This document shows, piece after piece, positions 8,940 to 27,780 of a stretch of 32,531 nucleotides of DNA; position 1 is the first letter of the stretch; every line of letters begins with the position of its first letter. Origin of the DNA: a virus (taxonomy: Duplodnaviria > Heunggongvirae > Uroviricota > Caudoviricetes); the IMG/VR virus record IMGVR_UViG_2568526722_000005. One strand, 5' to 3'. The notes below the pieces were generated by a model. The model did not search any database and was not told the DNA's origin. It worked only from the letters and a program-made list of their open reading frames with translations. The translations under genes were made by a program, and so were the position numbers.

Positions 8940-10410
8940 GTCGTTTCGTTGCGGCACTGCTGCCTCCTTTATCACTGGCCGGATCGGTATCAAATACCAG
9001 ATCCAGTTTGCGGTTTTCATCAATTTCGGCCTTGCGCCGACGTTTGACATCATCCGGATTACGACCACCAGCACGTACCCAGTCTGATTCTGTCGCCGCT
9101 CCACCACGAATCTGGATTTTCCAGGCCTCAGCCTCCTTAACAGGGTCAATCCACGGCATCACCGGTCCGGAATACACCGCGGTATACAGTGAAGAACGGT
9201 CAAGATCGCGGGGTAGCCTGATAACACCGGATGCCACAGCCTGTTTCAGCCAGGCACGATACATCGGACGGGTGACGGCACCAATAAACCAGTCCTGCAG
9301 GATCAGGTAGCCATCAGTGGATTCAACCAGCTCCTGACGCTGGGCGCTGTAAGTGCCGTTATAGTTGCGCGCTGTACTGGAAAAACTCAGACGACTGCCC
9401 GCCGCCACGGCACGCAACTGACCATTACGAAAAGTTTCAAGGTTAGGATTGGGGCGATCCGACTTCACCATTCCGATTTCTTCGCCGGGTTTCAGATCAT
9501 CGTAAATAATGCCTGGCTGAATGGTAAGCTCGCGTTCCTTATCCTTGCTGCCATTACCATCCGCTTCATAGCTCTGCCCGTCACCTTTCCGGATGTACAT
9601 CCCCAGAGCAGCGGCGATCCTTGCTGCAGTCAGCTCAGAATCTTCATACTCTTTCAGAGCACTGAGGCGGATCAGCACACCGGACAATAAAGACGTCCCG
9701 CGCATCTGGTGCAGACGGCGAACAAATTTAAGATGCAGCATTCGCTCTGCATCCACTTCTTTGGTTTCCATCTGCCGTCCGGATACGGGACGGCTTTTAT
9801 ACACCAGATATTTTTCGGGACGCCCCCAGTCATCAACAAACACGCCCTGATTCAGCCTGTTGCTCTCATCACTGGTCATGGGAATAAAGTCCGGCTCGAG
9901 CGCCTCCAGCCAGAAATGAACACCGGCAGAAGGCGTCAGGCTGTTTATGCGCCCGGAAACCATCTGGGCAAACACCTCACCATCGCGCAGCCAGGTACGA
10001 AGCATCAGACATTCCAGCATCGGACGGGTAAACTGCCCGGTGACTTCCGGGCTGACAGACCATTCACTCCATCGGGTGCGAATCTCCGCAGCCAGGTCAC
10101 GGGCAATGGCCCCATTGCGTAATACCGGATGTGGCTCGACAATAATCCCGTTTTTCCCCACCACCCGTTCTTCCAGCTTGTCAAATACACCAATAACCAG
10201 ATCGTGGTTGTTATCAAGGTAACGGGCCTGCTCACGTAACGACACGGCCCCGTACTGGCTTAACTGGTCGGCAGTTCGGTTCTCCCGTCGGGCTTTGTGT
10301 GTCCGCGTCGTTTTTACGGCCTCATAAGCCTGGATCACCGCACGGGAACGCAGCCTTGCCGCTTTCCATCCTGGTGAAAAAACGCCAATCACATCATCAA
10401 GAATTGCCAT
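8902..10410 (-). CDS. B: Portal protein (lambda gpB-like)
   Basis: About 500-aa ORF between W and the capsid gene, size as lambda B; start set at the Met whose ATG overlaps the W stop (ATGA). Confidence 0.8.
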   Translation of the reverse strand: MAILDDVIGVFSPGWKAARLRSRAVIQAYEAVKTTRTHKARRENRTADQLSQYGAVSLREQARYLDNNHDLVIGVFDKLEERVVGKNGIIVEPHPVLRNGAIARDLAAEIRTRWSEWSVSPEVTGQFTRPMLECLMLRTWLRDGEVFAQMVSGRINSLTPSAGVHFWLEALEPDFIPMTSDESNRLNQGVFVDDWGRPEKYLVYKSRPVSGRQMETKEVDAERMLHLKFVRRLHQMRGTSLLSGVLIRLSALKEYEDSELTAARIAAALGMYIRKGDGQSYEADGNGSKDKERELTIQPGIIYDDLKPGEEIGMVKSDRPNPNLETFRNGQLRAVAAGSRLSFSSTARNYNGTYSAQRQELVESTDGYLILQDWFIGAVTRPMYRAWLKQAVASGVIRLPRDLDRSSLYTAVYSGPVMPWIDPVKEAEAWKIQIRGGAATESDWVRAGGRNPDDVKRRRKAEIDENRKLDLVFDTDPASDKGGSSAATKRHEPQHTDDQSEE

Positions 10411-14960: not shown

Positions 14961-15166
14961 TTCATTTTCACTTTCTTAAATCTAACGACAGACGGCTAAC
15001 ATTTAAGTATTGTGAAATATTATCAAATGTAATCATCATTGATTTACAAAAGATACATTTTGCCCCGAAAGGATTCCTGTCAGAAACATCAAAAGATGAT
15101 GTTCTATACTGAGAACCATGGCAACACGGGCATCTAAAGTGAATATGGTTTGTAATATTTTCTACC

Positions 15167-15382
15167 TCAAAGTGCCACAACATGAACAGCCGCGGGGCCT
15201 TTAGGTCCGTTCTCAATACCAAATTCGACTTCCTGATTCTCAGTTAACGTTTTGAAATCGTTGCTCTGAATAGCTGAGAAATGGACAAACACATCTTTGC
15301 TACCATCTTTCGGCGTGATGAAACCAAAACCTTTTTCAGGGTTAAACCATTTCACTAAACCAGTCATTTTGTTAGACATCAT
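15167..15382 (-). CDS. Cold-shock protein, CspA family (CspB/CspI-like), prophage-borne
   Basis: [70 protein letters not shown] contains the RNP1/RNP2 motifs (KGFGFI, VFVHF); about 350 nt AT-rich upstream region consistent with a long csp 5' UTR. Confidence 0.9.
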
Positions 15383-15741
15383 TATTACCTTTTGAAGAAG
15401 TTAGCCCTTGGGCAGAATGGTCCGAAAAAAATATCAGAGAGAAAAACCAACAAGGAAATCTCAAGAGGTACAAATAATAAAATTATAACAATGACTGCTT
15501 CAGATAATTTTGTAACAAACCAGAACACCATTAACGCATGATTAACCAACCATAGCAAGGATTACTTTTGTAAAGAAAAACACACGAATGAAACAATAGC
15601 TTTATTTATTAATAAAACGTGTCATTCTGTCTAATGACCTTTTATCTTACCCTTAAGATTTCAAGGATTTTGACTCATGGAAGAGTCCTTTTTATTTAAA
15701 TTTCACATTCAGCGCTAAAAATAATCCGATTTAATATTAAT

Positions 15742-21996: not shown

Positions 21997-22152
21997 TTAC
22001 TCCTCAGGTTCGTAAGCTGTGAAGACAGCGACCTCCGTCTGGCCGGTTCGGATTCGTACCTCGCAGAGGTCTTTCCTCGTTACCAGTGCCGTCACTATGA
22101 CGGTTAAACAGATGACGATCAGGGCGATTAACATCGCCTTTTGCTGCTTCAT
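21997..22152 (-). CDS. hokD: Hok/Gef-family membrane toxin (HokD/RelF-like), 51 aa
   Basis: MKQQKAMLIALIVICLTVIVTALVTRKDLCEVRIRTGQTEVAVFTAYEPEE matches K-12 HokD as I recall it; AGGAGAAG Shine-Dalgarno; the longer ORF to 22209 is an in-frame upstream extension. Confidence 0.9.
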   Translation of the reverse strand: MKQQKAMLIALIVICLTVIVTALVTRKDLCEVRIRTGQTEVAVFTAYEPEE

Positions 22153-22409
22153 AGCCTGCTTCTCCTTGCCTTTCGGCACGTAAGAGGCTAACCTACATGT
22201 GTCTAGCATGAAATTGGCCTCAGATTAATGTTAAGCGTCTTGCAGGACGCGTAATGTTAACTGGGGCTTTTCTCTACCTGCCGTTGGTGTTCGTGCCCGA
22301 GGCAGATAGCCTCAAGCACCCGCAGTCATTCTACTTAACTAAGATTTCCCCGCAAACCGTTTTGTCCAGCACAGTAAATATCCAACTAAACCAATGGAGT
22401 TCGCTGTAT

Positions 22410-22589: not shown

Positions 22590-23071
22590 TATTCCCCCTA
22601 CAATCAATGTGCAATAACATTTAAACACACCTCAATTTAGCCGGACATATAAATATCTAAACCAGAAAAAATCACTTACATAGCGTTACAAACTCTTTAG
22701 TCTAAATATTCATCGTAAAACATTCCCCATACTTATCAGCCCGTTCTGCGCCAGGTAGCTCATTGCCTTATCTGGGAACCTGTAATCAGGTTTCCGGATG
22801 CTGGTGGATTTTCGCGTTTTAGTTGTTCATAAAAGTGCACAGCTTTAACCAGTTCTTCTGATGTAACCGGGACTGGCGGGGCAGTGAATAAGGCCTGAAT
22901 TTCATAGTTCGGCCTATCGTTACAATCCTCTTTTTTCGGTACATATTTCCAGTCACCAGACCACTACTTCCCCTGAAAGTCCGTAACGCCTTTTTTTCAC
23001 GTAGCGATATCGCCATGCCACTGTTTTTGCTTGCCCCGCCGTTTCATGCCCTTCCTGATAATTAACCTCGC

Positions 23072-23248
23072 TCATTCATCGCCCCACTCATCACAATATG
23101 CTTCGACCGGAGTTTTTCCTGCTTCATAATCATCACGCCATGCTTCAGCATCAGCAGCACTGCCACCACGTAACTCTGCATAGTCCATTAACAGTTCATG
23201 CCATTCTTCAAAACCGACGTTGTATTTAGTTGAACCAAAATCAGCCAT
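23072..23248 (-). CDS. Small acidic protein, 58 aa, unknown function
   Basis: MADFGSTKYNVGFEEWHELLMDYAELRGGSAADAEAWRDDYEAGKTPVEAYCDEWGDE; GAGGAAG Shine-Dalgarno about 8 nt upstream; below the 60-aa cutoff of the supplied track. Confidence 0.45.
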   Translation of the reverse strand: MADFGSTKYNVGFEEWHELLMDYAELRGGSAADAEAWRDDYEAGKTPVEAYCDEWGDE

Positions 23249-23285
23249 TTTGTTCTTCCTCTTCGTCTTTTATTTCGTGATATGA

Positions 23286-23423
23286 TTAATTGCAGTAGTT
23301 AAAGAAAATATCTTTTGCTTCGTCATGTATTTCATCAGGCGTCGCATCATTATCCACTTCGAATTCATCCTCGAAATCTCCACCGGCTATTCCCGTTTCA
23401 ATAATTATTTTAAACTTTCGCAT
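23286..23423 (-). CDS. Small acidic protein, 45 aa, unknown function
   Basis: MRKFKIIIETGIAGGDFEDEFEVDNDATPDEIHDEAKDIFFNYCN; AGGAGG lies upstream with a GNRA-tetraloop hairpin between it and the ATG. Confidence 0.4.
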   Translation of the reverse strand: MRKFKIIIETGIAGGDFEDEFEVDNDATPDEIHDEAKDIFFNYCN

Positions 23424-23930
23424 TTAACTACCGCCCTTTCGGGCGGCCTCCTGATGTTCTGAGGGTGCAGAAATCCCTCCGGTTAAGGATTAAATTTTTA
23501 ACAGTGCTAAATTTAATTATTCAGTTCTGGATTTTGTCACCCTGCGTATCCGCGCTTTCCCGTTACGCTCAATCTGAATTAGCTTTTCTATATTTTTTCG
23601 CCTTTCCCGTTCCTCCTGGCGCAAGAGCCTTACATCATCTGCCAGTCTGGTTTCTCTTTTCGCCACAGAGAGCATCCAGTCAAATGGCTCCACAACTGCA
23701 CCTCAGATTTTACAGCGGACCTGACGCTCTTTTTCGTCAACCCGGACAGAAGCGTGATGGCAATATGGTCTTTCCGATGGCTCATAAAGAAAATTAACCT
23801 GATTACGAGGGTCATCCTCTTTTATCGGAAATAAAACGATATTGCTTAACTAATCCTCTGGTTTTATTTCCATGCTCCTCTCCTTTGATGCGAATGCCAG
23901 CGGTAATTGAAGCCTGATAGCTAATTTCAC

Positions 23931-24353
23931 TCACAGTACCGCCTCCTGAAAATTACCCTGATAGAAAGCCAGTACACGCTGCATAGCTTCACTCTTCCGG
24001 CACTCGCGACAGATTATGTTTAGACGACTGTCGTAGCGACGTATTTCTCCATCAGGTAACGACCAGATAAGGTCCGGATCAACCACAGCTGTTTTCTTCA
24101 CCTTTGCCCTCGAGAGTTTTTTGCGGGCGTTTTGCCAGTCCTTACGCGCCTGTTCAGACGGGAATAACCCGTAGCCGGAGTTGTATACATCGCCACTGGC
24201 TACCAGCTCTCTGGCAAGAACGCTCATCAGATATCTAGTCGCACCTGTTTTAGCTTCCAGTTGCCGTAACGTCTCACGACCGCTCTGGCGCACGAGTTCC
24301 ACCACCTGCCCTTTAATTTTTTCCCGCTCTTCTTGTGTAAAAACTTTTGCCAC
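23931..24353 (-). CDS. Hypothetical 140-aa protein downstream of the replication initiator
   Basis: ORF MAKVFTQEEREKIKGQVVELVRQSG... co-directional with and 40 nt downstream of the O-like gene; no recognised similarity. Confidence 0.5.
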   Translation of the reverse strand: MAKVFTQEEREKIKGQVVELVRQSGRETLRQLEAKTGATRYLMSVLARELVASGDVYNSGYGLFPSEQARKDWQNARKKLSRAKVKKTAVVDPDLIWSLPDGEIRRYDSRLNIICRECRKSEAMQRVLAFYQGNFQEAVL

Positions 24354-27723: not shown

Positions 27724-27780
27724 TTTCTGGTGACGTTTGGCGGTATCAGTTTTACTCCGTGACTGCTCTGCCGCCGTTTT
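27724..27780 (+). ncRNA. dicF: DicF small regulatory RNA
   Basis: TTTCTGGTGACGTTTGGCGGTATCAGTTTTACTCCGTGACTGCTCTGCCGCC followed by GTTTTT matches the K-12 DicF sRNA as I recall it; located between the ydfABC-like genes and dicB as in Qin; preceded by a highly structured region. Confidence 0.85.

Follow-up and report, generated by a model that had tools for sequence, protein, structure and literature searches.

Comparable to the genes considered here are the open reading frames (ORFs) of the exo-xis, or ea22, region of lambda and Stx phages (orf60a, orf61, orf63, orf73 and ea8.5), likewise small, non-essential early accessory genes beside Ead/Ea22-like genes, which have been treated previously (PMC7093339; PMC8614690). 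Those ORFs lie between exo and xis, whereas the module in our window is placed after the replication genes; in phage ArgO145, the module stands in the early-left region, between two Ead/Ea22-like genes. Phage lambda was absent among the matches listed in tblastn searches with the 58-aa and 60-aa module proteins, 139 records of the 58-aa search falling outside the listing. Two of the module's products share small size and strong negative charge with T7 Gp2, phi29-family p56, T7 gp5.9, Ocr and ArdA, and the leader of one gene recalls T4 genes 38 and 25, in which split Shine-Dalgarno sites are reportedly bridged by a hairpin.

Prophage context and composition of the module

The window, by which we mean the whole 32,531-nucleotide stretch of DNA that was analysed (IMG/VR record IMGVR_UViG_2568526722_000005), is a Qin-type lambdoid prophage of E. 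coli. DicF, sok/hokD and a cspA-type leader lie within it, and a relative with 100% identity is annotated, in order, with an integrase (beside rspB), dicB, an immunity region, YdaT, an O-like gene, DUF977, the module, hokD, rem, Q and structural genes. The small-gene module lies on the minus strand, 3' of the O-like replication gene and of the DUF977/LygF gene (annotated by RefSeq in L001, a near-identical relative, and in L025), and runs from a 118-aa zinc-ribbon protein through a 60-aa DUF7167 protein and a 58-aa acidic protein with three predicted helices to an Ead/Ea22-related protein. These four genes would constitute an accessory module of the early-right (replication, or nin-like) operon, and it is highly probable that this four-gene module of a Qin-type operon is undergoing inactivation in the lineage of the window, only the 58-aa gene remaining intact. 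In the direction of the module, the features are as follows.

23931..24353, minus strand: upstream context gene, intact, for a DUF977/LygF/Ren-like protein of 140 aa (Pfam DUF977, 1.2e-29; phrog_142, 5.4e-48)
23874..23930, minus strand: intergenic spacer of 57 nt with the Shine-Dalgarno sequence AAAGGAGAGGAG of the 118-aa gene (from the sequence)
23517..23873, minus strand: pseudogene of a 118-aa protein with a zinc ribbon and a basic coiled coil (PHROG 1621; codon alignment to intact copies)
23424..23516, minus strand: intergenic region of 93 nt with two hairpins (RNA folding)
23286..23423, minus strand: acidic ORF of 45 aa, a DUF7167 gene cut by Y46* (Pfam PF23768; phrog_1997)
23072..23248, minus strand: intact acidic ORF of 58 aa, from a family borne on mobile genetic elements (phrog_519, 5.5e-22; RefSeq WP_000753057.1)
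22710..23075, minus strand: pseudogene of PHROG 660, akin to the C-terminal region of Ead/Ea22-like proteins (alignment; phrog_660, 4.2e-26)

Stop and start codons overlap among the last three module genes, which suggests that their translation is coupled: the ancestral 60-aa DUF7167 frame runs on to 23241 and shares 8 nt with the start of the 58-aa gene (ATGGCTGA), and the stop of the latter overlaps the start ATG of the PHROG 660 gene (ATGA). The 118-aa, 60-aa and 58-aa genes are all intact in 9 of the 12 copies sampled, and the intact 118-aa and 60-aa proteins are each found on at least 1000 contigs.

Lesions and conservation of the reading frames

The stretch 23424..23930, which the sequence-only reading took for some 500 bp without a convincing ORF, aligns in frame with an intact protein gene over 357 of its 507 nt. 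The alignment, at 23517..23873, is codon for codon with the intact 118-aa gene of phage vB_EcoS-640R1, phage ArgO145 and many E. coli prophages, the same gene being encoded in Stx2a phages. Similarity to PHROG 1621 extends over the whole length (phrog_1621, 1.8e-56, as scanned with the intact vB_EcoS-640R1 protein), and a weak match to Zn_Ribbon_TF (1.6e-4) falls under the Pfam cut-off. The window copy lacks the uninterrupted frame of this family, as stops stand at codons 8 and 57: E8* (TAG, 23850-23852) arose from G>T at 23852, and C57* (TGA, 23703-23705) from C>A at 23703, destroying the second cysteine of a CxxC motif. With both stops restored to sense, only three residues (V17I, A105G, A112V) separate it from the intact protein. 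Since the 118-aa gene carries these nonsense mutations, the supposedly non-coding stretch is, on the evidence of the codon alignment, a pseudogene with two short spacers, the truly intergenic sequence being confined to 23874..23930 (57 nt) and 23424..23516 (93 nt). The earlier suggestion that it might be degraded sequence was thus borne out, and RefSeq already flags the pseudogene with "internal stop". The mini-ORF at 23850..23873 (24 nt), also pointed out in that reading for its strong Shine-Dalgarno sequence, is present with AAAGGAGAGGAG upstream; rather than a separate feature, it comprises the first seven codons of the 118-aa gene at its true start, RefSeq placing the start of the intact gene at the ATG equivalent to 23873. 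Among intact copies, 21 of 28 variable sites fall at the third codon position, and a 110-aa plus-strand ORF (23465..23797) was ruled out, as this variation follows the minus-strand frame.

The two adjacent acidic ORFs of 45 and 58 aa are present on the minus strand as described, and both are strongly acidic. As its alignment indicates, the 45-aa ORF is a nonsense-truncated allele of the 60-aa gene, in which C>A at 23286 converted TAC to TAA (Y46*). It occupies the gene position of the 60-aa DUF7167 gene of ArgO145, Stx2a phages and many E. coli prophages, and matches PF23768 well above the gathering cut-off (41 bits against 24.4; E = 2.1e-10), from residue 1 over profile positions 1-52 of 60, and phrog_1997 over positions 1-45 of 57. 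Members of DUF7167 are 55-60 aa long (60 aa in phages and prophages), with a C-terminal aromatic strand and an acidic tail; the window copy is shorter and has lost the C-terminal motif C[NS][YF]x[YFW]x[ED][IV], which is kept in homologues from Klebsiella and Enterococcus phages. The AF2 model of DUF7167 comprises strands at 2-9, 16-23 and 46-51 (beta3) and a helix at 29-39. The truncated allele is probably non-functional, and truncation removes the 8-nt overlap together with whatever coupling of translation it provided to the 58-aa gene. Other inactivations of DUF7167 include K37*, in copy L024 and in 15 of 54 IMG/VR copies beginning MRKFKIII, and several frameshift alleles.

In the PHROG 660 gene, an extra A in the run at 22991-22997 (A7 in the window, A6 in intact copies) shifts the frame, a TAG follows at 22964-22966, and the 3' end diverges from the intact 119-129-aa copies from about 22800; RefSeq flags the gene as "frameshifted; internal stop". 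In total, the window lineage carries two nonsense mutations in the 118-aa gene, one in DUF7167, a frameshift and a nonsense mutation in the PHROG 660 gene, and none in the 58-aa gene. The derived stops E8*, C57* and Y46* are shared with none of the nine other copies and are present in L001. Comparison of the copies thereby shows a module that is being inactivated in this prophage lineage, and pN/pS ratios among intact copies show purifying selection on the 118-aa (0.08), 60-aa (0.09) and 58-aa (0.15) genes. The state of the module is the ordinary decay of a resident prophage.

Other accounts of these frames were weighed against such decay. Both acidic ORFs are short (45 and 58 aa), and might for that reason be chance ORFs that are not translated. 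This account has next to no probability: conservation across families effectively refutes it, with homologues at 37-60% identity in unrelated phage groups and plasmids, and with HMM matches for both ORFs, 203 clusters for the 58-aa family and a confident fold prediction for its product. Conservation of the frames in related prophages had been put forward as a check by the sequence-only reading, and both are indeed kept there and in distant phages and plasmids, at pN/pS 0.09-0.15. Equally hard to credit is a still functional 118-aa gene with recoded stops, whether by read-through or by insertion of selenocysteine at TGA; the change of TGC to TGA at a zinc-ligand cysteine bears a superficial likeness to Cys/Sec exchange, but this lineage also acquired the TAG at codon 8 and another stop in the adjacent gene, Rfam detected no SECIS-like RNA, and the gene further downstream is frameshifted too. 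All three stops are simple G:C>T:A changes found, among the 12 copies, only in the window and the near-identical L001, and L024 is an independently decayed copy with other stops in all three genes. More deserving of consideration, if quite unlikely, is that the 45-aa product still works as a short isoform of DUF7167, and that both acidic proteins continue to act together in the window prophage. The truncated allele is common (at least 1000 contigs carry the exact 45-aa sequence), exceeds the Pfam cut-off even so and keeps strands beta1 and beta2 and the helix; against this, the strand and acidic tail preserved from E. coli to Enterococcus phages are missing from it, Y46* is derived and its lineage has four further inactivating lesions in the genes alongside, and the stop/start overlap is abolished. 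It is also possible, though unlikely, that the nonsense mutations were positively selected, as adaptive silencing of a toxic takeover module whose leaky expression harms the lysogen, rather than accumulated by neutral decay. Three of six lineage-specific substitutions are nonsense and none is synonymous, where about 5% nonsense would be expected (P = 0.0025), or 15% within G:C>T:A changes (P = 0.004), and DUF7167 has been independently inactivated elsewhere, as outlined above. This test was, however, post hoc, in a region chosen for looking broken, and it draws on very few counts; in the lysogen, the operon would be expected to be repressed, most E. coli copies are intact, and other pseudogenes in the same prophage type, such as the tape measure gene of a relative, are as expected from general decay.

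The hairpin element before the DUF7167 gene

The 93-nt spacer preceding DUF7167 folds at -30.9 kcal/mol (z = -2.4 against shuffles). Its core consists of AGGAGG (23447-23452), a stem of CCGCCC (23441-23446) and GGGCGG (23431-23436) closed by a GAAA loop (23437-23440), and TAGTTAA leading to the ATG at 23423. The ribosome-binding sites that the sequence-only reading had assigned to both acidic ORFs therefore differ: that of the 58-aa ORF stands, with GAGGAAG 7-8 nt 5' of its ATG, whereas that of the 45-aa ORF does not in its simple form, as AGGAGG lies 23 nt from the AUG, with the 16-nt GNRA-capped hairpin in between, a distance of about 7 nt once folded. An exact 25-mer of the element occurs on at least 120 IMG/VR contigs, where it precedes, by 4-7 nt, the ATG of genes from at least four unrelated families, and the 67-nt core is found by itself before a DUF4014 gene in O157:H7 prophages. 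Variants of the stem mostly keep pairing through G.U, and there is one compensatory change, from G-C to A-T, in L021.

These features give it the look of a structured element for translation initiation, or of a junction. Taken on geometry and conservation only, its most likely role before DUF7167 is that of a split Shine-Dalgarno site, in which folding of the 16-nt hairpin would bring AGGAGG to within about 7 nt of the AUG. It shares with the T4 sites the order AGGAGG, hairpin, AUG, and before different genes the hairpin keeps 4-7 nt from the AUG, which likewise suits such a site. The element may in addition be a common joint where one gene is exchanged for another, or indeed may simply be a recombination junction common to mosaic modules. 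We consider it very improbable that 23424..23930 encodes a regulatory or small RNA instead of a dead gene, as had earlier been offered as a possibility. The better-than-shuffled fold of the 93-nt spacer, and the conservation of the 67-nt core independently of its flanking genes, would suit such an RNA, but scanning 22900..24000 against Rfam 15 returned no match at E<=1 (the only matches in the whole window, cspA, sok and DicF, all lie outside this interval), and a promoter and terminator scan found no promoter- or terminator-like site on the minus (coding) strand. Nor is the hairpin at 23431-23446, followed as it is by UAGUUAAAUG, a tR2-like intrinsic terminator. The in-frame alignment of most of the stretch to an intact protein gene, and the concentration of variable sites at third codon positions, likewise argue for a dead gene, and the constant position of the conserved element, 4-7 nt before a start codon, fits the leader of an mRNA rather than a stand-alone RNA.

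The acidic proteins and their possible role

The 58-aa protein belongs to a family for which Pfam holds no model. Its match to PHROG 519 is significant, with the invariant or near-invariant residues F13, W16, W37, Y41 and G44 all present, although the protein covers only profile positions 76-137 of 143 and the PHROG also includes longer fused members. The signature FxEW...GGSAADAxAWRxDYxxGKTP...DEWG is common to proteins of Ackermannviridae, phiKDA1, Mecenats66 and IncI2 plasmids. By tblastn, the family was found in 199 phage records and 561 plasmids, most of them conjugative, spanning lambdoid and Stx phages, Ackermannviridae, Autographiviridae, IncI2 and other plasmids. Its 203 clusters at 50% identity contain mainly stand-alone proteins of 48-75 aa, and its gene neighbours vary, from capsid genes in Ackermannviridae to SPFH/NfeD in IncI2 plasmids. 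The domain is also fused to NADAR, to GemA and to a ParB-like protein (the last by eye, without a Pfam match); such fusions are few and heterogeneous, and some, among them the DUF1187 fusion in P0301, may be artefacts of read-through or misassembly. One further candidate, P0050, comes from a 667-bp contig and has a SIS-like N-terminus that meets the family sequence at the GGSAADA motif; it is probably a chimera. The label "DUF5419" given to a Morganella phage homologue could not be reproduced with Pfam. The AF2 model (pLDDT 88.8) predicts a three-helix domain, with helices at 13-27, 34-42 and 47-55. Foldseek comparison of this model with PDB gave no match (best E 4.6), and comparison with BFVD returned only uncharacterized family members. 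Sequence searches of PDB yielded no match for the 58-aa or the 45-aa protein, and nothing meaningful for the restored 118-aa protein.

The sequence-only reading had likened the small acidic proteins to DNA mimics and to factors of host takeover or anti-defence. In charge density the likeness holds, at -12 over 58 aa (D+E/K+R 16/4, pI ~4.05) and -9 over 45 aa (13/4, pI ~4.05), the 60-aa form reaching -15. In sequence or fold, no relation to the characterized mimics and inhibitors (Ocr, ArdA, gp5.9, p56, Gp2) was found. Both p56 and T7 Gp2 are among the top Foldseek PDB matches of the DUF7167 model, with a beta-beta-alpha-beta layout, but at non-significant values (E = 0.96-1.9, TM at most 0.56) that make them a lead at most, and hhalign of DUF7167 against T7 Gp2 gave a probability of 0.4%. 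Searches of NCBIfam and PADLOC, the latter comprising models of defence systems only and none for anti-defence, returned no match for the acidic proteins, and a literature search on DUF7167, DUF5419 and the PHROG identifiers found nothing functional. In Klebsiella Guernseyvirinae and Enterococcus Herelleviridae, DUF7167 adjoins exonuclease genes; a link to these was not adopted, given that gene order differs between the two groups and the adjacency is absent in lambdoid phages. A "PD-(D/E)XK" label on a 55-aa DUF7167 protein itself looks like mis-annotation.

We infer that the two acidic proteins would bind a host protein, either in the lytic phase or when the phage or plasmid enters the cell, and would act as inhibitors or adaptors rather than as enzymes, because they are tiny, without catalytic motifs, and restricted to mobile elements whose lifestyles differ widely, and because the 58-aa domain occurs at the termini of unrelated DNA-related proteins, in the fusions with NADAR, GemA and the ParB-like protein. 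A bolder combination of these findings, which we regard as doubtful, is that the 58-aa protein, whose family is present in both temperate and virulent enterobacterial phages as well as in IncI2 plasmids, is the founding member of a family that binds host factors in anti-defence or takeover, that the clustered nonsense mutations of its neighbours reflect host selection against a harmful early module, and, separately, that the hairpin is a portable structured ribosome-binding site, reused by lambdoid phages before interchangeable accessory genes.

The pseudogenes, the truncated ORF and the 58-aa gene are all annotated in RefSeq already. For this locus, the analysis corrects the earlier description: what had been taken for non-coding early sequence is a pseudogene, and of the two "small acidic proteins" one is a truncated allele. 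More broadly, the AGGAGG-hairpin before several unrelated accessory genes could make a simple model in which to study structured ribosome-binding sites and the exchange of mosaic modules. Carried by many phages and conjugative plasmids, the 58-aa family is subject to purifying selection, has a confidently predicted fold and lacks a Pfam entry, and is a reasonable candidate for screens of small phage and plasmid proteins that target host factors.

Decay of the small-gene module

The stretch of about 500 bp at 23424..23930, in which the sequence-only reading had found no convincing ORF, is literally without one, but the cause is not a lack of coding origin: 23517..23873 is a pseudogene. When the window was aligned with phage vB_EcoS-640R1 (96.9% identity across a 1.7-kb query) and the near-identical E. 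coli strain 1EC213, an intact vB_EcoS-640R1 gene proved colinear with 23517..23873, with zero indels. As RefSeq starts this 118-aa gene at the ATG matching window position 23873, the 24-nt mini-ORF at 23850..23873, correctly described as having a strong Shine-Dalgarno (SD), constitutes its first seven codons. In the window copy codon 8 is changed from GAG to TAG (G>T at 23852) and codon 57 from TGC to TGA (C>A at 23703), the latter abolishing the second Cys in the second CxxC of a zinc ribbon; in RefSeq the pseudogene already carries the flag "internal stop". The restored form that was scanned is the intact vB_EcoS-640R1 protein rather than the stop-restored window copy, from which it differs at three residues; it matches PHROG 1621 (1.8e-56), and Zn_Ribbon_TF at sub-threshold level only. 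In the eight intact copies compared, 28 sites vary, 21 of them at third codon positions of the 118-aa frame, and pN/pS is 0.08; this rules out the 110-aa antisense ORF. The spacer at 23874..23930 is intergenic and holds the SD of the 118-aa gene.

Both strongly acidic minus-strand ORFs recognized from the sequence are present, at 23072..23248 (58 aa, net charge -12) and 23286..23423 (45 aa, net charge -9), with pI ~4.05. The shorter is what truncation has left of a DUF7167 gene. Its score of 41 bits exceeds the Pfam threshold of 24.4, but the match spans model positions 1-52 of 60 only, and positions 1-45 of 57 in PHROG 1997. The gene encodes 60 aa in every phage copy and most prophage copies, and codon 46 in the window has changed from TAC to TAA (C>A at 23286). 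Distant homologues of 55-56 aa, from Guernseyvirinae of Klebsiella and Herelleviridae of Enterococcus, have in common a C-terminal motif, C-[NS]-[YF]-x-[YFW]-x-[ED]-[IV], and behind it an acidic tail; the window copy has neither. AlphaFold2 modeling of the 60-aa protein (8-sequence alignment, mean pLDDT 78.9) gave three strands (2-9, 16-23, 46-51) and one helix (29-39); on this model, truncation costs one of the predicted strands. In the intact arrangement the DUF7167 stop and the 58-aa start share 8 nt (ATGGCTGA), and the premature stop removes this overlap, together with the presumed translational coupling to the 58-aa gene.

In Klebsiella Guernseyvirinae the distant DUF7167 genes are immediately followed by a gene for a 454-aa exonuclease; in Enterococcus Herelleviridae they are immediately preceded by one for a 180-aa exonuclease. 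The PD-(D/E)XK label on the 55-aa DUF7167 protein itself, in phage 37P2, is probably a mis-annotation.

DUF7167 genes beside exonuclease genes in sampled loci
L004, 3501-3671
L005, 3501-3668
L006, 3501-3671

A second, independent truncation, K37*, was observed in another sampled locus (L024, 882-1064), and 36-aa products in 15 of the 54 IMG/VR DUF7167 loci beginning MRKFKIII presumably represent the same allele. Frameshifted alleles also occur among database proteins (P0273, P0281, P0289, P0293). DUF7167 is repeatedly lost in E. coli prophages.

Downstream, the PHROG 660 gene (22710..23075), which begins at the 58-aa stop through an ATGA overlap, is likewise broken, by an A7 run at 22991-22997 (A6 in intact copies) and a TAG at 22964-22966, and is flagged "frameshifted; internal stop" in RefSeq. 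This minus-strand run varies in length, reaching A8 in vB_EcoS-640R1; the site is prone to slippage, with a change of frame as the result.

The first three module genes are intact in 9 of 12 sampled copies; the window has one lesion set in common with L001, a near-identical relative, and L024 carries different, independent stops in all three. Six substitutions within 23000..23960 are private to the window lineage; three are nonsense, three missense and none synonymous. All three premature stops (23852, 23703 and 23286, in two genes) are private G:C>T:A transversions, a class of which 15% are expected to create stops, as are ~5% of random substitutions. This nonsense excess (post-hoc P ~0.002-0.004) could reflect selection for silencing of the module; however, because the region was picked for looking broken and the counts are tiny, selection is a minor rival only. 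An oxidative-damage mutation spectrum could alternatively account for the pattern. The state of the module is ordinary prophage decay, and its features already have RefSeq annotations (DUF7167 family protein, hypothetical protein, pseudogenes). The earlier observation is partly confirmed, and its interpretation partly supported.

Prophage setting

The window is an E. coli lambdoid prophage at the Qin position, marked as Qin-like by three matches at Rfam gathering level.

Rfam matches in the window
15121-15536, minus strand, cspA-type thermoregulator leader (cspI)
22147-22321, minus strand, sok antitoxin RNA (with hokD)
27725-27776, plus strand, DicF

An annotated relative of 100% identity, NZ_AP021891, carries in order an integrase beside rspB, exonuclease, ydfD, dicB, the immunity region, a YdaT-family protein, an O-like protein, DUF977, the region of interest, hokD, rem, DUF968, Q, lysis genes, cspI and structural genes, and the module therefore lies on the minus strand, in what corresponds to the nin region of the early-right operon. 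Of 5426 complete E. coli genomes, 4227 have matches to the 1.7 kb enclosing the module (826 of them across at least 80% of its length), as do 27 phage records. In the otherwise identical NZ_AP021891 an ISApl1 (IS30-like) insertion, absent from the window, separates the DUF977 gene from the pseudogene (9266-10240), corresponding to about window 23880-23930.

The 58-aa family and the acidic proteins

The intact 58-aa ORF is a member of a broad, unnamed family. It matches PHROG 519 (5.5e-22) and nothing in Pfam, NCBIfam or PDB. With HMMER, 1.84 billion representatives were searched in full (E<=1e-3) and 203 clusters recovered, nearly all of stand-alone proteins of 48-75 aa. Family conservation centers on F13, W16, L20, A24, W37, Y41, G44 and G56 and the signature GGSAADAxAWRxDYxxGKTP. 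By tblastn, the family is present in 199 phage records, including the lambdoid Stx phage ArgO145, Morganella phage Mecenats66, autographivirus phiKDA1 and Ackermannviridae of the genera Kuttervirus and Taipeivirus; and in 561 plasmids, 516 of them conjugative. Many of the plasmids listed are ~60 kb, like the IncI2 plasmid examined, in which the gene is flanked by a DUF1187 gene and SPFH/NfeD genes. AlphaFold2 (48 sequences, pLDDT 88.8) confidently predicts a three-helix domain (13-27, 34-42, 47-55), for which Foldseek returned no relative in PDB, and uncharacterized family members only in BFVD. Across intact copies pN/pS is 0.15.

A few longer proteins bear the domain at one end.

C-terminal 58-aa domains (fusion proteins P0372, P0404, P0301 and that of L010)
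L010, 2006-2662, NADAR protein of phage EP_H11
Mu GemA-like protein
P0404, no Pfam match, ParB-like by eye

In P0301 the domain also follows a DUF1187 domain, which may represent read-through of the adjacent IncI2 genes. P0050 (84 aa, from an ENA contig of 667 bp) is most likely an assembly chimera: its N-terminus resembles a SIS domain, and the junction with the 58-aa family falls precisely on the GGSAADA motif common to both.

Both acidic proteins are tiny, contain no catalytic motifs and evolve under purifying selection; their families are confined to mobile elements of very different lifestyles, and the 58-aa domain recurs as an end-module on unrelated DNA-related proteins. Binding of a host protein, as inhibitor or adaptor, is the leading candidate mechanism, proposed tentatively and at less than even odds; DNA mimicry, as suggested from acidity, is much less certain. 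The sole structural hint, that the DUF7167 model resembles p56 and T7 Gp2, is non-significant (E ~1-2, TM <=0.56) and received no support from hhalign. In the window prophage, no module gene other than the 58-aa one could still be functional.

A hairpin between AGGAGG and the start codon

The spacer upstream of DUF7167 folds into two hairpins (23424..23516; -30.9 kcal/mol, z = -2.4), and its core reads AGGAGG, CCGCCC-GAAA-GGGCGG, TA, then 5 nt and ATG.

SD-hairpin element in the window
23429-23453, minus strand, exact 25-mer, within 23424-23516

The exact 25-mer occurs in at least 120 IMG/VR contigs, always 4-7 nt ahead of a start codon, and precedes at least four unrelated gene families, among them DUF7167, DUF4014 and two 131-aa families. 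A 67-nt piece of the spacer alone occupies the equivalent position in O157:H7 prophages, but 5' of a DUF4014 gene. Most stem variants keep all six pairs via G.U, and a sampled locus (L021) carries a G-C to A-T double change. The element has no Rfam match, and was rejected as a terminator because no U-run follows the hairpin. ArgO145-type phages carry an extra 70-aa ORF (MLNTQKAINAEKYNEW...) between the 118-aa gene and the element, directly 5' of the latter, where the window has a 22-nt hairpin-forming segment instead.

Extra 70-aa ORF
L003, 4101-4313 (ArgO145 gp16), and 21 of 120 IMG/VR loci

AGGAGG lies 23 nt from AUG in linear sequence, and ~7 nt from it once the hairpin is formed. We infer that the element may act as a split Shine-Dalgarno, in which the folded hairpin would bring AGGAGG within reach of the start codon, a likeness to the leaders of T4 genes 38 and 25; it would also be a common junction at which modules are exchanged. 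Within a module in ordinary decay, this cassette and the unnamed 58-aa family constitute two small leads.
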